From contig JANMWI010000097.1 in assembly GCA_031393955.1 (NCBI GenBank), positions 15,702 to 79,701 on the forward strand: a stretch of 64,000 bases of DNA, read 5' to 3'. Both the position numbers and the translations under genes were made by a program. The notes under the pieces were generated by a model. The model ran no database searches. It was not told where the DNA came from and was given only the letters and a program-made list of their open reading frames with translations. Below are positions 5,392 to 21,545 of the stretch, in pieces. This stretch comes from Acidobacteriota bacterium. Lineage in GTDB: Bacteria > Acidobacteriota > Vicinamibacteria > Vicinamibacterales > 2-12-FULL-66-21. The stretch's first letter is position 1. Each line of letters begins with the position of its first letter.

Positions 5392-7934
5392 CGGCGCGCC
5401 CGGGGCGCGGCCTGCTGACCGGCCCGGCCCTCCTCGTCGACGACCACCGGCGGCAGGTAATCGAGTCGCAGCGAGTTCTTGCCGACCACGACGCGAGGCA
5501 GGGACGGGCCGCACATCGGGCGAAGGGTCAGCTCACCCGAGAGTCCAGCCGCGGCCCGCACGCGCAGCCGCTGGAGCACGTCAGGCAAGGTCGTGACCGT
5601 GAAGAATCCCTGGGCGTCGCTGACGGTCCGCCCCGATACTCCGGCATGATCGGGCTCGACCGCGGCGAGGTCGATCCGGGCTCGAGGCAGCGGTCGGCCG
5701 GAGGCATCGACGACCTGCCCGCGCACGAGACAGGCCCGCGGCACGTAACTCTCGACCGTCACCCCTCCAAGCGGCCGCCGTTCGCCGTGGTCCGGTGTCG
5801 CATAGACGGCGACCTGGCACTGTGCCCGCTGCCCGACGGCGGCCGTCCGCGGCGCGCGCAGCGAAATAGTCACGGTGCGCGGACAGTCCGTGAACGGCTC
5901 CAAATCGAAGGCTGGCTGGTCGACGCTGCACACCCACCCCGGACGGGCCGAGGTCGCGACGACCTCGAAGTGGGCGGGCACGAACAACGGGTTGTTGACT
6001 TCCATCTGAAACGTCGACGGGGCAATCTGAAGATTGCGCTGGGTCATGTTGTTGGTGTAATCGGAGTCCTGCCCGAACGCGATCGACACCTGAGCGCAGG
6101 TGTGATCGGTCGAGGTCGGCGTCCAGGCTTGCGAAACCGGCACCGTCTGGCCGGCCGCGACCATGACCTGTTGTGAGCCGATGTAGTGAAACACGCTGTT
6201 GCCGGCGCTGAAGCGGATGACGCCGAAGCTCACCGTCGCGATGCCGGCAACGGCGCCGCGGTTGGTCACGCTGACGGCGATTGTGTTGGCGACATTCAGC
6301 CGCGGAGCGGTCGCCGTCGTGATATCCGCGTTGTTCCAGCTCGGCTGGCCGTTGGCGAGCGCGCACGGCTGACCCGACGTCGAACCCGTCGCCGCGCAGT
6401 TCGGGAACGTGAGATCCGTCGCCTGTCCGGCCGCCAGGGCGAGCGCCCTGCCGACGCGAACCAGTCCCCAGCCGAGATCGCTCGACCAGTTACCGGTCGC
6501 GGCGTTGAATGCCGTGTTGCGGGTCTGGTCCGTCGAATCGATCAGCAGCCGCTTCACGCTCTCGGCCGTCATGAGTGGATACTTCTCGAGGATCAGCGCC
6601 GCCAGCCCCGCGACGACGCCGGTCGCCGGTGACGTGCCGGCGATACCGGTGAGATGGGTCGTCCCCGACTGAATGATGTCGATGCCGCCGCCACCAGGCG
6701 TCATGGCCAGCTGCTGTCCCGGTGCCGCCAGGTCCGGCTTCAGCGCCGACAGGTTGGGATTGAGGAACGTGAAGTCCTTGCGCGGTCCGCGGGTGAAGTT
6801 CGACCAGACCACATCGTCGCTGCGATTGACGGTGCCCTGGTCCGCGCTCGCGGTAACCATCAGCGTCAACGATCCGGAGCCCGGTGCGCGGACGATGTTG
6901 TCGCCGATCGCCCCCGCCGGCGTGCAGTTGGCGGGGTTTCGCGACGATGACGCGATCACCACCAGGCCAAGTCCGACCAGAAAGTTGGCCTGCTCCGCCT
7001 GAGCGCTCGTCCCGTCGTCGTCCGGACAGCTGCTGAACGCCATGTTGACGACGCGGATCCCGAACTTCTTCGCATTGATCCCGACCCAGTCCGCGGCCTT
7101 GACGAAGCCGTCACAAGCGGTGGCACCATTTACCTTGTGGCACTGGCGCACATTGACGTACCTGGTGCCGGGCGCGATGCCGGCGCAATTCGCCGTCGCG
7201 CCGACGCCCGGGTTGCGACAGGTCTGTCCCGTGACGCCGGCGCCGACGGCAATCGTCGCCATCACCGACTCGTGAAAAGACAAAACATCCGGTGGATTCG
7301 TCGTCCCGTCGCCAGGGTCGTTGGGGTCGGTGGCATCAAAACCGGCGACTCGCTTGCCGGCGAGCGTCGTGAAGGTCCCGTCGCTGATGCCGGTACCAAT
7401 GAAAGCGATCACCACCCCGGTGCCGGTCAGCCCGAGGTCCTCCGCCGTCCCTGAGTACTGACTCGACCGGTGGGCTTCGACCGCTCGTGAGACGACGTCG
7501 ATCTCGGGATTCATCAGTGGGCGCGCTTCGATCATCGCCACCTCCGGCCGGGCCGCGAGTCTCGGCAGATCCGCCGGCGTCACATTGTCGACGAGCACCG
7601 TCGTGATCAGTCGGCCGACGTATTCGATGCGTCCGAAGGGAGAGAGGGCCTGCTCGATCTCGGCCGGCGTGAGACATCGATTGAGATCGACGATGACGTC
7701 GAGGGTGGTCGCGGAGCGCGCCGTGATTTCCAGACGATCGTCGATGAAGTTGCGATTCTGGTCGCCAATCCAGGTGAGATGCTTTCGCTGACCGACGAAC
7801 ACCGGCTGGGCATGCTGCTCGACGCGTGTCTGCCACGCGAGGGGCGTGTAGGGAGCCGCTGCCGCCTCCGGGCAGATGAAGACACCGAGCAGCAACACCA
7901 CCACGGATGCGGCGCTGACCGTGCAACATTTCAT
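5388..7934 (-). CDS. Subtilisin-like serine peptidase (S8) with C-terminal carboxypeptidase-regulatory-like domain
   Basis: Signal peptide MKCCTVSAASVVVLLLGVFICPEAAAA. S8 motifs SFHESVMATIAVG (His), VVNMAFS (Asn), IAGTSPATGVVAGLAALILE (Ser). The C-terminus contains CLVRGQVVDASGRPL...DAQGFFTVTTLP. Confidence 0.8.
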   Translation of the reverse strand: MKCCTVSAASVVVLLLGVFICPEAAAAPYTPLAWQTRVEQHAQPVFVGQRKHLTWIGDQNRNFIDDRLEITARSATTLDVIVDLNRCLTPAEIEQALSPFGRIEYVGRLITTVLVDNVTPADLPRLAARPEVAMIEARPLMNPEIDVVSRAVEAHRSSQYSGTAEDLGLTGTGVVIAFIGTGISDGTFTTLAGKRVAGFDATDPNDPGDGTTNPPDVLSFHESVMATIAVGAGVTGQTCRNPGVGATANCAGIAPGTRYVNVRQCHKVNGATACDGFVKAADWVGINAKKFGIRVVNMAFSSCPDDDGTSAQAEQANFLVGLGLVVIASSSRNPANCTPAGAIGDNIVRAPGSGSLTLMVTASADQGTVNRSDDVVWSNFTRGPRKDFTFLNPNLSALKPDLAAPGQQLAMTPGGGGIDIIQSGTTHLTGIAGTSPATGVVAGLAALILEKYPLMTAESVKRLLIDSTDQTRNTAFNAATGNWSSDLGWGLVRVGRALALAAGQATDLTFPNCAATGSTSGQPCALANGQPSWNNADITTATAPRLNVANTIAVSVTNRGAVAGIATVSFGVIRFSAGNSVFHYIGSQQVMVAAGQTVPVSQAWTPTSTDHTCAQVSIAFGQDSDYTNNMTQRNLQIAPSTFQMEVNNPLFVPAHFEVVATSARPGWVCSVDQPAFDLEPFTDCPRTVTISLRAPRTAAVGQRAQCQVAVYATPDHGERRPLGGVTVESYVPRACLVRGQVVDASGRPLPRARIDLAAVEPDHAGVSGRTVSDAQGFFTVTTLPDVLQRLRVRAAAGLSGELTLRPMCGPSLPRVVVGKNSLRLDYLPPVVVDEEGRAGQQAAPRARR

Positions 7935-8465
7935 AGGTCACCTCACTCTGTTCGGCGCCTCGCAGAGGTCTGGATCGACGCCGGGTGTGGACTGTGCCCG
8001 CCCAGGGAGGTCGTGGCAAGTATCGCAGCGAATGCCGAGATCCGGAAGCGTCTTCTGACATGTTTTAGGAGTGTCGATTCGTACCGGGAACTTGGTTCCC
8101 CTGATCCGGCGCGGGAGCGGGCACGACGGAGTCGCCCGCGCAAGTGACTCTTGTCTTTCATCGAAAAACACTGCGGTCCACCGAGCACCTGAAATCCAGA
8201 CTCGACACGCGGATGAGCAAACCGTGCGACCGTGACCGTTGTCACGGTTGCCCCAGCGATTCCGGTGCAGCAGCAATCAGTCGTCATCCCGTGCACGCCG
8301 GGGAAATCCCCAGTGCCGTGCTGGGCGACCTGCGAGCCCCCTGTGAGCTAAGCTGGTCAAAGCGGCTGGGGACGACCCAACCCTGGGAGCAGGCGTCGGA
8401 TGGGATTCGAGTCCCGTCGGCGGTACGAGCCACTTGTCGCCCCGCGGTTCGCTCCGCGCACCGAC

Positions 8466-9644
8466 ATGCACAGCACTCTCTGCAGACTCACGCACGGCGT
8501 CGCCGTCTGTGTCCTGACCGTGGCGACGCTGTCCGGGGGTTCCGCCGCGGCGCCGGCCTCACCGCGCCGGTCGATTGAACCGATCCGCACCGACGGACGG
8601 TTATTCGTCGCCGGCGGCGCCACCTTCCGGCCGGTGTTCGCTTCAGCGCTGTCAATCCTGACCAAGCCTCCGGCCGAGCGGACCCGCGTGCTCGACGAAC
8701 TGCGCACGCTCGGCTTCAACGGCGTCCGCGTCTTCGCCGGCGCGCTGACGTGGGCGCACCAGACGCCGGCCACAGCCATCGCGGCATTACCCACCCTCCT
8801 GGACGAGGCCGCGGCGCGCGGCCTGTACGTCTACGTTGTCGCCATCACCGACAGCGGCACGGGCTACGACGTCGAAACGCACCTCCGCCGCGTCGCCGCC
8901 ATCGTCTCGCGCCACGACAATGCGCTGCTCGAGGTCGCCAACGAGATCGGTCACCCGACGCAGAGCGCGCGCGTCAACGACGCGGCGGCGCTGCTCGCCC
9001 TGGCTCGCCGGACGGTGCCAGACGGCACTCTGTGGTCGCTCGGCGCCTCGCTGGGCGTCGACGCGGTCGGCAGCAGCGGCCGATACCCCACCGCCGGGGG
9101 CATGTTCAACGACGCGCACCTCGACCGCGGCGGCGGGAAGTGGCGGCAGGTCGGCCGCCTGCGTGAGATCTCCGGAATCAGCGCGGCGACCGGTCAACCG
9201 GTCATAAGCGGCGAGCCGATTGGCGCCGCCGAGATCGCGGTTCGTGGCCGCCGCGAATCGGACCCGTCGTTCTTCTTCGCCATGGGCGCGCTCTGCCGCG
9301 GCTTCGAGATGGGCTGCGTCTGGCACTCGGACGCCGGTCTGCACGCCGAGCGGCCCGGCCCGGTCCAGCGCCGCGGCGCCGAGGCGTTCATCGCCGGCTG
9401 GCGCGCGCTCGACACCGACGCGCGGCTCTCGTTCGTCGATGCTGCCGCCGACCGGGCGCCGATTGCCGGCGCCACTCACGTCGCTCACGCCTATGCGTTC
9501 GTCGCCGGCGATCGCGGCTTCCTCGTGCTGTTGGGAGTGACGGGAGATCCGGCCCTGCGATTCGGCAACGGATGGACGGACCGCGGCACGCTCGCGGAGC
9601 GGCCGGGGGTTCAGGTGCGGCGGATTGGACGAAGCAACTCGTAG
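8466..9644 (+). CDS. Secreted TIM-barrel glycoside-hydrolase-like protein (GH5/cellulase-like)
   Basis: I prefer the internal ATG at 8466 (MHSTLCRLTHGVAVCVLTVATLSGGSAAA, a signal peptide). GFNGVRVF and LLEVANEIGHP (an NE acid/base-like motif) and ISGEPIG are consistent with a clan GH-A fold. The family call is tentative. Confidence 0.5.
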   Translation: MHSTLCRLTHGVAVCVLTVATLSGGSAAAPASPRRSIEPIRTDGRLFVAGGATFRPVFASALSILTKPPAERTRVLDELRTLGFNGVRVFAGALTWAHQTPATAIAALPTLLDEAAARGLYVYVVAITDSGTGYDVETHLRRVAAIVSRHDNALLEVANEIGHPTQSARVNDAAALLALARRTVPDGTLWSLGASLGVDAVGSSGRYPTAGGMFNDAHLDRGGGKWRQVGRLREISGISAATGQPVISGEPIGAAEIAVRGRRESDPSFFFAMGALCRGFEMGCVWHSDAGLHAERPGPVQRRGAEAFIAGWRALDTDARLSFVDAAADRAPIAGATHVAHAYAFVAGDRGFLVLLGVTGDPALRFGNGWTDRGTLAERPGVQVRRIGRSNS

Positions 9645-15861: not shown

Positions 15862-16683
15862 TCAGGCCGGTTTACCTTTCGTCACGATAGTCGCGAGCAA
15901 GTACCCGTGCCGGCGAACCGACGGGACGTGGCGATCGAGCCAGACGAATGGCCGGACCGCCGCCCCGGTGACGACCGACAGCGGCCGGCACCACGCGTGG
16001 CACGCCAGGTCGAGCATCCGGAGCCAGCCGGGAATGAACAGAATCGCGGTCTCGGAGACGACCGTGAGGCCCGATCGCTGCAGCATCGCCCGCAGCGCCG
16101 GCCGGCTATACGACTTCTCGAAGCCGTAGGCATACAGCCCGAGCGCCTGGAGCGCCGCGGCGAGCAGCGGCCTGAGGAACGGGTCGCGGCGGTTCGGCAC
16201 GCCGACGATCGCCCGCCCGCCCGGCTTCAGGACGCGCGCGATTTCCCGCACCGCCTGTTCCGTTTCGTCGAAGTGTTCGATCGTCCCCATCGAATAGACG
16301 ATGTCGAAGGCGTCGTCGAGAAAGGGAATGTCGCGCACGTCGGCGACGGCGCCGTGCAGCGGGGTGGTGCGGCTGAACGCGCCGCGCGCCTGACGGACCG
16401 TCGGTGGTGAGATGTCGATCCCGTAGACCGTGGCGCCGCGCTCGCCCGCCCACGCGAGAATACGGGTGTTGCGCGCTTCATCCCAGAGGTCGGTTTTGAA
16501 GACGCGCAATCCGGAAAGGGCCGGGCAGTGGTCCGTGAAGAGGCGGCGCTCGTTCTCGGCGTAGTAGCGGGTCGAGGCCGCGCCGCCGAGGTCCGGGAAC
16601 GTCGCCCCGACGCGGGCCCAGAACCGCCGGTAGGCGGATCCTTCGGCGTCGGGCGGCGCGGCGGACGTCGCGGCCGGATTCAT
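15862..16683 (-). CDS. Class I SAM-dependent methyltransferase
   Basis: From ATG 16683 (MNPAATS...), which overlaps the upstream stop as ATGA. ATVYGIDISPPTVRQA...DDAFDIVYSMGTIEHFDE...VLKPGGRAIVGVPN is a Methyltransf_11/25-like core. Confidence 0.75.
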   Translation of the reverse strand: MNPAATSAAPPDAEGSAYRRFWARVGATFPDLGGAASTRYYAENERRLFTDHCPALSGLRVFKTDLWDEARNTRILAWAGERGATVYGIDISPPTVRQARGAFSRTTPLHGAVADVRDIPFLDDAFDIVYSMGTIEHFDETEQAVREIARVLKPGGRAIVGVPNRRDPFLRPLLAAALQALGLYAYGFEKSYSRPALRAMLQRSGLTVVSETAILFIPGWLRMLDLACHAWCRPLSVVTGAAVRPFVWLDRHVPSVRRHGYLLATIVTKGKPA

Positions 16684-18644
16684 GGATGCGCGCCCTCGAC
16701 GCTCCAGTGCCATTCGCCGATCCGGAACGAGAGCGCCCGCGGATCGCCGTTGTGCAGCAGGGCGCCGGCCGATTCCGCCGGAGCCCCCGGGGCGAAGGCC
16801 AGCTCGTGGTCGCCTGGCAGCAGGAGGAACGGCCCCACCTGTTCGATGTGGCGGGCCTCGGCAACTGCGAGCGTTTGCAGATCGCGGCCGTCGAGCGTCA
16901 GCCGCAACCGACGAGTGCCGCGGAGCGTCGCCATCTCGATGCTGACGGCCGCGGCCACTGTCCGCCGGCTGGTGTTGCGGACGCGCCACGACGCTGTCTC
17001 CGTCATCCATCGCCACGTCCACGCCTGGTCGTATTCGCGCGGATAGAAACCGTTCATCTGCAGCGTATAAACCACCGGACGCGCCGCGATGACGGGAAAG
17101 ATGTCGGCCGTCGCAAATCGTACCGCAGGGCTGAAGCCGGCGATGGCGGACTGTCGGGCCAGCCAGCGCCCTTCCGGCGAGGTCCGCCGCATCAGCAGGT
17201 GCGTGTAACCGGCCGCCGCCAGTTTGCCGGCCAGCTCAGGCTCTGCGCAATCCTCGATTTGCGCCGCGACGAGCGACACGCGGCCGCCGCTCAGCCAGGG
17301 AACCGAGGCGGACTCCGGAGTAATCGGCGAGCAGTCAGCGGCCTGTACGGAACCCGGCTGCCGCACGACCCAGCGATGCGCCTCGGTCGGAAGAACGTCG
17401 CGCCACAGGTTTGATGGCCAGACCGCGTACTCCGCCGCCGCCAGCGCCACGAGCATCAGGCACGCCACCTGCCCGCGCCGTCCGCCTGACCGCCAGAGCA
17501 GCTCGGCGCCCATGCCCGCCAGCAGCGCCGCCATCAGCTGCACGACAATGCCAAACCGGGCGTAGGAACGGAACATTGGCACGAGCGCGAAGAGCGCGGC
17601 GGAGGGGCGGACCATCCTGATCGGCCCGATGCTGCGCTCCGGCGAGAGGGAGCAGAGGAGCGCCACAAGCGCGACCGCTGCGAGGACCGGCGCGGCGAGC
17701 AGGATTGGATCGCGGCGGCGACGCGCCGCTCCGGCCAGGGACACGAGGCCGAGCGCCACGATGCTCCAGCCGAGGCTGACCTGCTGCTCGAGCAGTCCGT
17801 CCTGCACGCCGGCCGACCGCCATAAATCCTGGACCCGTGACCCAATCCACGGGTGCGCGGCCGGCGGCATGAGGTAGCTCCACCACTTGGCGCTGTACAG
17901 GAACAGCTCCTCGCGCGCGATGGCGTAGCCGCCCGGCGGAAGCGCGCCGACGTGCGTCGCGTGCCACGCCCAGGCGCCGCCCAGCCCGGCGACCGCGACG
18001 AGGCAGGCCACAGTGATCAGCAACCGCCCGACGGGGCGCGGGCGGGTGGCTCGCGTACACCACCAGTAGCCGCCAAGCGCCCACGGCGTGATGACCGCCG
18101 CCATCAGCCCGCCGTAGAAATTCGACAGCGCGACCGCCGCTGCCGCGCCGGCGAGCAGCGCGAGCGCCCGCGCTGTCGGATTGTCCGCCGCTCGGAACAG
18201 GGCGAGCAGATAGAGCGGCAGCCACTGTGTCTGCGCGATGTGCGGATGATAGGCGGCCTGCGCGAGATGAAACGGGCAGAAGGCGAACGCCAGGGCGGCC
18301 AGCGCCGAGCCGGCCCGTGGCACGCCCAGATGACGTCCGAGCAGGAAAGCGGCGCCGGCCGCAAGCGGGAACGTCAGGAGGACGATCGCGTTGTAGGCGG
18401 CCACCGGACCGGCGACCCGTGCGATGAGCGCACCGGGCACGTCCGTGACCGGCTGGAAATATGGACCCGGGGTCAGCGGCCGTGCGAACTGCGCGATGAC
18501 GGTAAAGGGATCGTGGTGCCGGCCCACCAGCTCCCCGCCGAAGATGCGCTCCGCCGGCGCGCGCAGCACCGGTACGGCCAGGACGACGGTAATCGCGAGC
18601 GCGATCGCGACGATGCCGGCGGTCTCAGCGGCGCGCGCGGGCAT
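16680..18644 (-). CDS. Large polytopic membrane protein with extracytoplasmic C-terminal domain (GT-C/YfhO-like, function unknown)
   Basis: 654-aa ORF with many hydrophobic helices in the first ~420 aa (IVAIALAITVVLAVPVL..., AYNAIVLLTFPLAAGAAFLLG..., WLPLYLLALF...). The C-terminal ~200 aa are soluble-looking. The start overlaps the upstream gene by 20 nt. Confidence 0.7.
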   Translation of the reverse strand: MPARAAETAGIVAIALAITVVLAVPVLRAPAERIFGGELVGRHHDPFTVIAQFARPLTPGPYFQPVTDVPGALIARVAGPVAAYNAIVLLTFPLAAGAAFLLGRHLGVPRAGSALAALAFAFCPFHLAQAAYHPHIAQTQWLPLYLLALFRAADNPTARALALLAGAAAAVALSNFYGGLMAAVITPWALGGYWWCTRATRPRPVGRLLITVACLVAVAGLGGAWAWHATHVGALPPGGYAIAREELFLYSAKWWSYLMPPAAHPWIGSRVQDLWRSAGVQDGLLEQQVSLGWSIVALGLVSLAGAARRRRDPILLAAPVLAAVALVALLCSLSPERSIGPIRMVRPSAALFALVPMFRSYARFGIVVQLMAALLAGMGAELLWRSGGRRGQVACLMLVALAAAEYAVWPSNLWRDVLPTEAHRWVVRQPGSVQAADCSPITPESASVPWLSGGRVSLVAAQIEDCAEPELAGKLAAAGYTHLLMRRTSPEGRWLARQSAIAGFSPAVRFATADIFPVIAARPVVYTLQMNGFYPREYDQAWTWRWMTETASWRVRNTSRRTVAAAVSIEMATLRGTRRLRLTLDGRDLQTLAVAEARHIEQVGPFLLLPGDHELAFAPGAPAESAGALLHNGDPRALSFRIGEWHWSVEGAHP

Positions 18645-20052
18645 ACGTCATCATCGCGGCGACGAGCAGGATCGGCGCCGTCACGGCCCACGCCCGCACG
18701 TCCCGGACCTGCGGCGCGAAGACGACAGCGCGCGCCGCGATTCCCAGTCCCTGGAATACCGCGATCTGAGTGAGCGCGAGCACGGCGGTGCCCGCCGCAA
18801 CCACTGCCCAGCAGTCGATCGTGAAGAGCACGACGCACAGCGCGAAGTACAACCCGATCTGGAAACCCGGCAGGAGGGCGAGGGCCCCCTGCGGGTCCGG
18901 GAGCGCCGGACTGGCGCCAGCAGCGGCGGCAATCGCCTCGCCGTACGGAAATCCGAACAGGTAGACGAACGCTCCGCCGAGCGCCATGCCGGCGACGGCG
19001 CGGCGAACGGCGTTCGCCGATCGGCCGTGACGCCACAGAGCGGCAGCCGTCACGACGACCGCTGCCAGCAGCAGCTGGTAGAACGCGTGAATCAGAAAGA
19101 GCGGGGAGGCGACGATGGTCGCGGGCAGCGCGACGACGAGCAGCCGCAGGGCGCCGAGTGCGATGAAGAGCGGCAGCGCCGCGGCGAGGGCGGCGGCTCG
19201 CAGCTTCCAGGTTCCCGCGTAGCCGAGCGCCGTCGCTACGTAGACAGGAATGAGCGGCGTCGTCAGGCACTCCTGGGTGACGACGAATGCCCCCCGGCTC
19301 GTCGACAGCACGTTGCCGGTTGCGGTCGCGGCGACGCCGACGAGCGCCAGCGACCCTGCCGCCAGCCGCGCCGCCAGCCCCGCCGCGGCGAGGACGCCGG
19401 CGCTGTCGCCGTACAGCGGAACGGCGATGCTGAAGAGCACGACGCACAGCGCCGTCAGCAGCACGAAGCGGGTCGTGATGCCACGGGGCTCGAACCGGCG
19501 GGCGCGCCGCGATGGTCGCGCCGCCGCGGGCGGGGCGAAGTCGCTGTTCGCGGCGTGCATCCATCCGAAGACATAGGCGGAAACCACGAGCGCGAGCAGA
19601 GCCGGCCAGGCGTAAAGGTGAAGGATGTCGAACCAATACGGGGACCCGGCGGCGCGCCCGAGCGTGCCAATCCGAATCGTGTTCAGCGCGAGGATGAGGA
19701 GGATGCCGCCGGCGGCTCCCTGGAGCCGTCTGCGCCAGGCGGCCGGGTAGGCCAGAATCGCCGCGGCGCAGAGGGCGAGGACGTCGGCGCCGCTGCACGC
19801 CAGGGTGACCTCGACCGGCAGCGCCGCCGCGCCGAACAGGCCGCGCGCGAGGCGTCCCTGTGCCTCTGTCAGCGGGAGGATGACGTGGCTCTCGACCCAG
19901 CCGAGGCGCAGCAGCCCGAACAGGCACAGGCTCCAGGCGACGCCCCGGAGCACGAAGTCACGCGCTGATCTGAGCGCGGCTCCGTCCGTCGGCACGAGGG
20001 ATCTCCTGTACCGCAACCTTGCGCGCCCCGAGCAGCCGGCCGAGCTCCGCAA
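18625..20052 (-). CDS. Exosortase-family protein with two tandem exosortase-like halves
   Basis: The first half has VTLACSGADVL (Cys86), LNTIRIGTLG (Arg127) and ILHLYAWP (His145), the exosortase/archaeosortase signature. The second half has FVVTQECLTTPL (Cys262), GALRLLVVAL (Arg303) and LIHAFYQ (His322). The start is uncertain: the longest ORF overlaps the upstream gene by 95 nt, and GTG 19995 or GTG 19953 (4 nt after the upstream stop) are alternatives. Confidence 0.7.
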   Translation of the reverse strand: MRSSAGCSGRARLRYRRSLVPTDGAALRSARDFVLRGVAWSLCLFGLLRLGWVESHVILPLTEAQGRLARGLFGAAALPVEVTLACSGADVLALCAAAILAYPAAWRRRLQGAAGGILLILALNTIRIGTLGRAAGSPYWFDILHLYAWPALLALVVSAYVFGWMHAANSDFAPPAAARPSRRARRFEPRGITTRFVLLTALCVVLFSIAVPLYGDSAGVLAAAGLAARLAAGSLALVGVAATATGNVLSTSRGAFVVTQECLTTPLIPVYVATALGYAGTWKLRAAALAAALPLFIALGALRLLVVALPATIVASPLFLIHAFYQLLLAAVVVTAAALWRHGRSANAVRRAVAGMALGGAFVYLFGFPYGEAIAAAAGASPALPDPQGALALLPGFQIGLYFALCVVLFTIDCWAVVAAGTAVLALTQIAVFQGLGIAARAVVFAPQVRDVRAWAVTAPILLVAAMMTYARARR

Positions 20053-20437
20053 TCGCGGCCAGGCTCTTCAGCCTGGTCGAGCAGGAGAAAATGTCGATGT
20101 TGACGGTGTTGGTCTCCGGCCACGTATGAAGCACGGCATGTGACTCGCGCAGCACGAGCACGCAGGTCAGGCCGTGACCCGGGTAGGCATGCGTGACCTC
20201 GTGGACGATGGTGGCGCCGGCCGCGCGCAGCGCCGCCGCGAACCCGGCCGCCAGCGCCGCGCCGTCGAATCCTGCCAGCGCCTCACAGTTCCCGAAATCG
20301 GCCGAGTACAGCACCGGCTGCTCTTGCTGCTGAGCGATCACGTCACGCGTACTATACGCCCTGCCGGGAGCATGCCCGTGTGCAATAGAGAACAGCGGCC
20401 GGCCATTCTTCTCGATTAAAGTGCCCCGGACCGTCAT
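19958..20437 (-). CDS. S-adenosylmethionine decarboxylase-like pyruvoyl proenzyme (SpeH/SpeD class 1 family)
   Basis: YSADFGNCE...GLTCVLVLRESHAVLHTWPETNTVNIDIFSCS matches the AdoMetDC core (ESH self-cleavage site, HTWPE, FxC). There is a ~35-aa N-terminal extension, and GTG 20341 is an alternative start. Confidence 0.7.
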   Translation of the reverse strand: MTVRGTLIEKNGRPLFSIAHGHAPGRAYSTRDVIAQQQEQPVLYSADFGNCEALAGFDGAALAAGFAAALRAAGATIVHEVTHAYPGHGLTCVLVLRESHAVLHTWPETNTVNIDIFSCSTRLKSLAAIAELGRLLGARKVAVQEIPRADGRSRAQISA

Positions 20438-20450
20438 CTAGGAGAGAAGA

Positions 20451-21545
20451 GTGCTCATGCCCAGGAGAAGTCTCAGCAGCGTTGCAGCGGCTGTATGCGT
20501 CGCGGTCTGTCTCGCGCCGGCTGCCGCCGTGGCCCAGACGGCTCCGTCCCTCGGCACCGCCCAGAGCTTCGCGGTGCTTGGCGGCTCGACCGTGACCAAC
20601 ACGGGGGCCAGCCTGGTGACCGGAGACCTCGGTGTCAGTCCGGGGTCGGCGGTCACCGGCTTTCCGCCCGGCCTGGTGGCCGGCGGCGCGATCCATGCCG
20701 CCGATGCCGTCGCGCTGCAGGCGCAGAACGACGTCACGACGGCGTACAACGCCCTCGTCTCGCAGGCCTGCACCGCAGATCTGACCGGGCAGGATCTCGG
20801 CGGAAAAACCCTGACGCCCGGTGTCTACTGCTTCACATCGTCCGCGCAGCTGACCGGCACCCTCACGCTCAACGCGCTGGGCAACGCCAATGCCGTGTTC
20901 ATCTTCAAAATCGGCAGCACGCTGACGACGGCGAGCAATGCCTCGGTGGTCGTCACCAACGGCGGCCTCAACTGCAATACCTACTGGCAGGTGGGCTCGT
21001 CGGCGACGATCGGCACCGGGACGACATTCGCCGGCAACATTCTGGCGCTGACCAGCATCAGCCTGACGACCGGCGCGCGGGTGTTCGGCCGGACGCTGGC
21101 CCGCAACGGCGCCGTGACGCTCGACACCAACACCGTCGACCGCTCCGCCTGTGTGACGCTGGCGGGTCCCGGTGCCTGCCCGGCGATCACGATCGCGCCC
21201 GCGACGCTGCCGGCCGCGACGGTCGGACTGGCCTTCTCGCAGACCTTCACCGCGTCCGGCGGCACCGGGCCCTACACGTTCGCGGTTGTGGCCGGCGCAC
21301 CGCCGACCGGCCTGACGCTCAGCCCGGCCGGCGTGCTGGCGGGAACGCCGGCGGCTGCGGGCACGCCGACGTTCTCCATCCGTGCGCTGGATGCGGCGGG
21401 ATGCTCCCAGACGTCCGCCTTCACCGCCACGGTCGCCTCGCCGGTGCCGACGCTCCCGGAGTGGGCGATGATGACGCTGTCGCTGCTGGTCGTGGCGGCG
21501 GGTGTGCTCGCCTTGCGGGGCCGCCGCCGCGGGACGGCTCGTTAG
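20451..21545 (+). CDS. Secreted DUF3494/ice-binding-like protein with Ig-like module and IPTL/PEP-CTERM-type sorting tail
   Basis: Signal peptide ...AAAVCVAVCLAPAAAVAQT. LGTAQSFAVLGGSTVTNTGASLVTGDLGVSPGSAVTGF and repeated T/N/G beta-helix turns fit DUF3494. ITIAPATLPAATVGLAFSQTFTASGGTGPYTFAV is an Ig-like module. GGAGA lies upstream, and the start is GTG 20451 or ATG 20457. Confidence 0.8.
   Translation: MLMPRRSLSSVAAAVCVAVCLAPAAAVAQTAPSLGTAQSFAVLGGSTVTNTGASLVTGDLGVSPGSAVTGFPPGLVAGGAIHAADAVALQAQNDVTTAYNALVSQACTADLTGQDLGGKTLTPGVYCFTSSAQLTGTLTLNALGNANAVFIFKIGSTLTTASNASVVVTNGGLNCNTYWQVGSSATIGTGTTFAGNILALTSISLTTGARVFGRTLARNGAVTLDTNTVDRSACVTLAGPGACPAITIAPATLPAATVGLAFSQTFTASGGTGPYTFAVVAGAPPTGLTLSPAGVLAGTPAAAGTPTFSIRALDAAGCSQTSAFTATVASPVPTLPEWAMMTLSLLVVAAGVLALRGRRRGTAR
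21444..21542 (+). other. C-terminal sorting signal (motif + TM helix + Arg cluster)
   Basis: VPTLPEWAMMTLSLLVVAAGVLALRGRRRGTAR. This compares with the IPTLxxWG-type variant of PEP-CTERM. Confidence 0.7.

Follow-up and report, generated by a model that had tools for sequence, protein, structure and literature searches.

A soil-acidobacterium XrtH-like exosortase with two diverged catalytic modules and a third, helper-like membrane module

Comparative genomics has supplied nearly the whole definition of bacterial exosortases. In the exosortase/archaeosortase superfamily (TIGR04178 signature; Pfam PF09721), three helices in succession bear, where they reach the outer side of the membrane, a nearly invariant set of Cys, Arg and His; to our knowledge, nothing is known of the oligomeric state of the bacterial enzymes or of the target to which their cargo is attached, and we know of nothing reported on the acceptor in XrtH-type systems. 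In this study, we describe a gene from a soil acidobacterium, located in a 64,000-nucleotide stretch of DNA (assembly GCA_031393955.1, contig JANMWI010000097.1; hereafter the window, to which all coordinates refer unless another locus is named), whose product consists, by profile comparisons, of two fused and diverged exosortase catalytic units followed by a third, helper-like membrane module. The preliminary description of this locus knew of no two-site exosortase, and our literature search agrees: we found neither a published description of such an enzyme nor a paper on XrtH-type enzymes, and no curated family covers an architecture with two catalytic units. This architecture provides a handle on how the poorly understood exosortases work.

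A relative from the same superfamily is ArtA of Haloferax volcanii (MEROPS C106), in which a Cys and an Arg on the outer side of the membrane are conserved. Its critical residues are Cys173, Arg214 and Arg253 (PMC9263693), and in its proposed mechanism a thioester intermediate is resolved by an amine acceptor (PMC7157517, PMC9263693); ArtA-dependent anchoring in H. volcanii needs the pyruvoyl decarboxylase PssD, the presumed source of that acceptor (PMC7157517). ArtA differs from the protein described here in being archaeal, in having a single catalytic domain and in recognizing PGF-CTERM signals. Both modules of the present protein are nearest to the short XrtH (TIGR04177), ArtB and XrtX type. 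Canonical XrtH, as found in nine acidobacterial loci (L094-L102), is about 160-200 residues long and has one catalytic unit, and its gene is overlapped by that of a separate membrane protein of the family NF041730 / PF28117, named 'exosortase H-associated membrane protein' by NCBI, so that the family cited in the preliminary description does exist. Two of these loci (L099 and L101) pair the enzyme with an adjacent, dedicated cargo, as is the case here. Unlike canonical XrtH, the present enzyme unites two catalytic units and a partner-like module in one chain of about 456 residues, and its cassette adds genes for an S-adenosylmethionine decarboxylase (AdoMetDC)-like protein, a methyltransferase and a 654-residue membrane protein.

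Two exosortase modules in one chain

The longest open reading frame (ORF) of the gene occupies 18625..20052 on the minus strand and encodes 475 amino acids by translation, a numbering that is kept throughout. This ORF probably overcalls the start, because the orthologues, which are 446-490 residues long and cover 96% of it, begin at the equivalent of V20, and the GTG codon of V20 at 19995 has an AGGAG 9 nt upstream; initiation there would give a 456-residue product. Module 1 (residues 30-168; 19549..19965, minus strand, like every feature of the gene) corresponds to a canonical XrtH-type exosortase domain with C86 (TGC, 19797..19795, in VTLACSG), R127 (19674..19672, in NTIRIG) and H145 (19620..19618, in LHLYAWP), its motifs being the canonical CSG, NxxRI and LHxYxWP. 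It is followed by an Arg-rich and poorly conserved linker, predicted to be cytoplasmic (residues 169-193; 19474..19548), with a mean of 3.2 Lys and Arg per sequence, a column entropy of 3.4 bits and a predicted local distance difference test score (pLDDT) of 58-68. Module 2 (residues 194-342; 19027..19473) corresponds to a diverged XrtH-type domain with C262 (TGC, 19269..19267, in VTQECLT), R303 (19146..19144, in GALRLLV) and H322 (19089..19087, in LIHAFYQ), and its family motifs read VTQEC(I/L)(S/T)TPLIPVY, GxxRLLVVALP and SPLFLIHAFYQ. Module 3 (residues 343-475; 18628..19026) is a four-helix C-terminal module without a Cys-Arg-His set, in which a DxQGA loop (D386, Q388) and R453 are conserved. 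The preliminary description had drawn attention to two Cys-Arg-His sets in this ORF, and we recover its six residues, motifs and codons without change, together with Cys-Arg and Arg-His spacings of 41 and 18 residues in the first half and 41 and 19 in the second, and the replacement of the CSG context in the second half by CLT (QEC(I/L)(S/T)TP in the family).

Searched against NCBIfam, the whole protein matches exosortase/archaeosortase families only, in two or three stretches. The profile search that had been suggested for the second half bears out its kinship: residues 186-345 alone match archaeosortase B (ArtB; E 3.6e-6, positions 3-149 of 156) and XrtH (E 2.7e-5), then XrtY and XrtX. Without exception, the equivalent segments of 14 orthologues match ArtB, XrtH and XrtX, the best E values being 6e-10 and 9e-10, and all ten families in their match list belong to the exosortases or archaeosortases. 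The exosortase signature TIGR04178 (cut-off 23 bits) scores 44-47 bits on module 1, with residues 80-165 aligned to profile positions 1-94 of 97, and 48.7 bits on the gene in a six-frame search of the genome; on module 2 alone it scores 15.8 bits, below the cut-off, over residues 258-339 and profile positions 3-92, in a register that sets C262 on the Cys position of the profile, and it is matched by 12 of the 14 orthologous module 2 segments at E <= 0.01. XrtH is the top-scoring family for module 1 and the second for module 2. As the TIGR04177 scores (63.4 bits for the whole protein, 58.9 for module 1 and 24.2 for module 2) do not reach its cut-off of 86 bits, the protein is best described as XrtH-like and not as a curated XrtH member. 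Pfam hmmscan of the whole protein returns no family at E <= 1, and the homology of modules 1 and 2 rests on the NCBIfam models together with hhalign.

In the profile-profile comparisons, canonical XrtH was represented by nine proteins whose loci, all of Acidobacteriota, had been located by means of the partner model NF041730. With hhalign this profile matches module 1 with a probability of 99.6% (E 9e-25, 142 columns) and module 2 with 97.2% (E 3e-11, 146 columns), and when it is run against the alignment of the entire protein it yields two matches and no more, one per module. When the two halves are compared directly, BLASTP is not significant (E 0.52), and hhalign gives 86.8% with 59 close orthologues and 95.6% with 102 cluster representatives (E 1.3e-8, score 54.7), against scores of at most 18.0 in 60 column shuffles, 13.8 with one half reversed and 11-12 when module 3, which has a similar composition, is compared with modules 1 and 2. 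The alignment pairs C86 with C262 and R127 with R303, as well as the RF motif of helix 1 and the (T)W(R/K)xR cytoplasmic turn; when it is extended, the His residues of the two modules, where the following helix begins, come to lie no more than two positions apart, and WM(H/R) is set opposite WRH where helix 4 ends. Module 2 contains a 14-residue insertion (helix and beta hairpin, residues about 218-257) that is found also in canonical XrtH and is shortened in module 1. The chain thus carries, by these comparisons, two homologous exosortase modules in tandem, and the duplication of an exosortase unit that had been suspected from the spacing of the motifs stands.

The two sites are conserved to the same degree. 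Among 102 cluster representatives of at least 420 residues, with 32-74% identity to the query, C86 is present in 98 of 99, R127 in 100 of 100 and H145 in 98 of 99, while C262 is found in 100 of 100, R303 in 101 of 102 and H322 in 98 of 100, so that both sets are kept in 98-100% of the orthologues, as the preliminary description would lead one to expect. Conservation of at least 95% is reached in only 19 columns over the length of the protein, and the residues of the two triads account for six of them. The mean majority frequency is 0.52 in module 2 versus 0.56 in module 1, with nine versus eight near-invariant columns, and the linker between the two modules varies freely. As judged from these columns, module 2 is as constrained as module 1, a pattern expected of two functional sites and not of a decaying duplicate. 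Each module displays the Cys, Arg and His that mark the superfamily, conserved as above and located at helix ends in the AlphaFold2 (AF2) model.

In that model (pLDDT 80, predicted template-modelling score 0.62), one helix pattern occurs two times over, and a further four helices come after it. Lys and Arg are concentrated in the N-terminus, in the loops 104-111, 167-193, 280-286 and 343-349, and in the C-terminus, and these loops alternate with Lys/Arg-poor ones that carry or flank the triads, in agreement with the AF2 helix map. Under the positive-inside rule, this distribution suggests that each catalytic module has four spanning helices and one interfacial helix, that both triads lie on the periplasmic face and that the C-terminus is cytoplasmic, the latter being in keeping with relatives in which cytoplasmic enzymes are fused C-terminally. 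Neither a PDB sequence search with the protein nor a Foldseek search of the PDB with the AF2 model found anything.

The gene is present in at least 918 matches of a collection at 90% identity, among the candidates scored, and in at least 263 clusters at 50% identity (E <= 1e-30, representative library), mostly of Vicinamibacterales. The records are mostly metagenome-assembled genomes (MAGs) labelled Vicinamibacterales or Acidobacteriota, and the few that are labelled otherwise may be mis-binned. The spread is patchy, with the gene in 13 of 25 other species sampled of the window's genus and in 11 of 185 genera sampled across the phylum. A survey of fused versus split versions, also suggested earlier, showed the modules to be fused throughout, with no genuinely split member among 61 relatives and 301 genomes of the phylum: the matches, found in 18 and 12 of these, respectively, form one open frame, excepting contig ends and one single-domain exosortase, and in most of the full-length cluster representatives one match covers the entire protein. 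When the search is limited to short proteins, many sequences of about 270 residues appear that cover modules 2 and 3; we considered these as stand-alone partners and rejected them, since they start inside helix 1 of module 2 and, in the case inspected (P0128 / L001, on a long-read contig with many errors), frameshifts have left module 1 upstream in two different reading frames. In this 685-kb MAG contig the exosortase gene (L001 5100..6900), and apparently its neighbours too, are broken by several frameshifts, and these breaks yield spurious 'half' proteins in public collections.

Module 3 and the XrtH-associated membrane protein

The preliminary description had wondered whether the second half could be a fused XrtH-associated protein, and whether that partner could itself be a cryptic exosortase paralogue. 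A profile of 129 partner sequences (XrtH_assoc), compared by hhalign, supports neither idea, as it matches module 2 with a probability of 0.3%, module 1 with 1% and canonical XrtH with 4%. Derivation of the partner family from a dead exosortase finds no support in the last of these values, with the limit that so old a kinship could escape the test. Part of the fusion idea survives in another place: the C-terminal third of the protein resembles the partner weakly, the profile matching module 3 with 60% (E 8.4e-5, score 33.6, 102 columns), against scores of at most 13.9 in 100 shuffles. The match lies at residues about 343-471, after the catalytic units, which is the order expected from the canonical loci.

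Curated models do not see this resemblance. In hmmscan searches of NCBIfam and Pfam, none of 22 module 3 segments matched NF041730 or PF28117, and NF041730 found no match in residues 186-475 or 346-475 at E <= 10. Since no curated hidden Markov model (HMM) detects module 3, its equivalence to the partner is put forward with moderate confidence. NF041730 (cut-off 35 bits) also has no match at E <= 0.001 in the genome that carries the gene, which would fit a partner function provided in cis, and module 3 probably stands in for the separate protein. Both are Cys-less and polytopic and come directly after the catalytic part. They differ in that the XrtH-associated protein is about 205 residues long and has a periplasmic beta region (PRVT..), whereas module 3, of about 130 residues, is without it; the alignment of module 3 with the partner profile spans about 100 columns, and module 3 is no more than a putative member of the family. 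Module 3 was also considered as a degenerate third exosortase repeat; this finds no support here, with hhalign giving 0.2% against modules 1 and 2 and canonical XrtH.

The canonical partner varies at its own C-terminus. In two Acidobacteriota genomes it has a long extension (L098 520..2796 and L102 1177..2757), TPR-like by eye, and in L099 and L101 it ends with a SEC-C-like CPCGSGRKYKRCCGR motif; these extensions and ends indicate that the family has variable cytoplasmic tails.

A possible division of labour between the two sites

The explanation that we consider probable is a single chain of roughly 12 helices and three modules, in which modules 1 and 2 are diverged copies of a short XrtH-type unit, each with a Cys, an Arg and a His of its own that would lie where helices 2, 3 and 4 reach the periplasm. 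As a sorting transpeptidase, the enzyme would be dedicated to the IPTL-CTERM protein encoded next to it. Module 1 would most likely cleave the sorting signal through a Cys thioester, module 2 would most likely perform a second, specialised catalytic step of the same pathway, for instance acceptor handling or a second cleavage, and module 3 would be a helper without a triad that probably replaces the separate XrtH-associated partner. As to site 2 taken by itself, the conservation data incline us, with modest confidence, to regard it as catalytic. Several points weigh against this explanation. We know of no XrtH-type enzyme with biochemical support, and the PDB offered no exosortase structure for comparison. 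Module 2 is without the canonical CSG and NxxRI contexts, and its triad could serve binding or structure instead of catalysis. The critical set of ArtA includes Arg253 and no His, so the role of the His is assumed. The genome has one recognisable cargo and no obvious second substrate for a second site, and the similarity between module 3 and the XrtH-associated protein is borderline, with no curated HMM that sees module 3.

The alternative that deserves most attention would make module 2 a pseudo-enzyme, that is, the scaffold or substrate-binding half of an obligate pseudo-dimer, with its triad kept for folding or for gripping the signal peptide. Its motifs are indeed off consensus (QEC(I/L)(S/T)TP for CSG and GxxRLL for NxxRI), it scores 24-27 bits on exosortase models versus 52-63 for module 1, the genome offers a single cargo, and canonical XrtH works with the gene product of a non-catalytic membrane partner. 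Inactive duplicates, however, usually lose their catalytic residues, and here all three persist in 98-100% of proteins with 32-74% identity, in columns that rank with the best conserved of the entire chain; moreover, the Cys-less module 3 is already there for a scaffold role. On this evidence we hold a second catalytic step by module 2 to be more likely than an inert scaffold, and the pseudo-enzyme to be unlikely, although a contender to be taken seriously.

Two further alternatives concern the origin of the second half. It could be the XrtH-associated protein (NF041730/PF28117) fused to XrtH, the partner being then a cryptic exosortase paralogue; the partner family is real, its gene overlaps that of XrtH in nine acidobacterial loci, and no separate partner gene is present in this genome. 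The profiles point elsewhere, as canonical XrtH matches module 2 with 97.2% and the partner profile does so with 0.3% (1% for module 1 and 4% for XrtH), NF041730 is not among the hmmscan matches of residues 186-475 at E values up to 10, and the partner-like signal falls in module 3 and not in module 2. We regard such an origin as very improbable. The likeness of the halves could also be a matter of chance or of the composition of hydrophobic helices, or the fusion an error of assembly or gene calling that joined two exosortase genes, and both the failure of BLASTP to relate the halves (E 0.52) and the frequency of spurious profile matches among transmembrane proteins would fit this. Against it stand the shuffled and reversed controls, which stay at or below 18 when the observed score is 54.7, the scores of 11-12 obtained by module 3, of the same composition, with modules 1 and 2, and the intact single frame in hundreds of independent assemblies; an artefact is refuted on these grounds and is the least probable explanation of all.

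The three-module, two-site enzyme, which we prefer, would have consequences for exosortases in general. Two catalytic units in one chain suggest that small exosortases act as pairs or in larger assemblies. Because each site is separately mutable within one gene, the protein lends itself to a clean genetic test.

The cassette and its relatives

The presumed cargo is encoded divergently at 20451..21545 on the plus strand. It is a secreted protein with Ice_binding-like and He_PIG domains (PF11999 at 1.3e-64; PF05345) and an IPTL-CTERM end, recognized by PF18203 (24.6 bits, cut-off 20.8) and by TIGR04174 (26.3 bits, cut-off 20.5). The sorting signal, at residues 332-358 (about 21444..21524), consists of VPTLPEW, a transmembrane (TM) helix and RGRRR, and the C-terminal tail reads …VPTLPEWAMMTLSLLVVAAGVLALRGRRR. 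The cargo thus ends in a bona fide IPTL-CTERM tail, the signal cognate to XrtH. It is the sole IPTL-CTERM match in the 4.4-Mb genome, and the fact that this one protein adjoins the exosortase points to a dedicated pairing of enzyme and cargo.

The minus-strand operon begins with the gene for the AdoMetDC-like pyruvoyl enzyme (19958..20437), which overlaps the exosortase start. The protein matches PF02675 at 1.3e-22, scores 72 bits on the SpeH-type equivalog TIGR03330, just below the cut-off of 75.65, and retains the ES self-cleavage motif (LRESHAVLHTWPE). No aminopropyltransferase gene lies beside it. Its position next to the exosortase is conserved in relatives. The exosortase stop is overlapped by the gene for a 654-residue polytopic membrane protein (16680..18644, minus strand) with weak YfhO / PTPS_related similarity, which follows the exosortase directly in six of the eight loci compared; in L011 and L012, where the order is rearranged, it comes before the exosortase, and none was detected in L014. 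The last gene of the cassette encodes a class I S-adenosylmethionine (SAM) methyltransferase (15862..16683, minus strand; PF08241 at 1.3e-21); its longest ORF extends to 17022, and its start is probably the ATG at 16683.

Most of the cassette recurs in all eight related loci, with the gene order changed in two, and in these two reordered loci a homologue of the ice-binding cargo was not detected. The methyltransferase is conserved in the cassette and is fused to the exosortase in P0028, in L011 and in many representatives of 680-850 residues. In L011, from a relative of the same order, an ORF of 866 residues (6154..8754, G039:C1) joins the double exosortase to Methyltransf_11 and AdoMet_dc domains, the AdoMetDC-like protein being thus part of the same chain. 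Fusions of this Rosetta-stone kind suggest that the SAM enzymes are functionally tied to the exosortase.

By analogy with PssD of the ArtA system, the AdoMetDC-like pyruvoyl enzyme may, as a speculation, play a corresponding role. A fuller version of this idea, which we put forward as doubtful, is that site 1 cleaves the cargo and holds it as a thioester, site 2 transfers it to an amine acceptor or activates that acceptor, the AdoMetDC-like enzyme and the methyltransferase make the acceptor, and the 654-residue protein presents it. If this is true, the fused chain would preserve, as in a snapshot, an exosortase machine made elsewhere of several subunits, and such a split reaction would also give a lead to the acceptor chemistry of bacterial exosortases, long unknown. 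The cassette is self-contained, comprising a single cargo, its exosortase, a pair of SAM-related enzymes and a membrane protein, and is compact enough for reconstitution.

Some variation among the relatives concerns the cargo. Upstream of the fused ORF in L011 (3324..4121) lies the gene for a different cargo without any Pfam domain, whose end consists of VPTMGTLW, a hydrophobic TM helix and basic residues, so that the sorting tail is kept while the passenger domain is swapped. Some cassettes have two adjacent cargo genes of the Ice_binding/IPTL type (L013 7728..9605 and L014 4021..5559). The genome that contains the window has one other exosortase-family gene, a 290-residue open frame outside the window (G000:C36:33168-33455; TIGR04178 78.6 bits). 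A Vicinamibacterales MAG, CBDHFM01, has at least six double-exosortase loci (L079, L080, L082 and L084-L086) with about 40% identity to the query, which suggests several paralogous cassettes in this organism, perhaps one per cargo.

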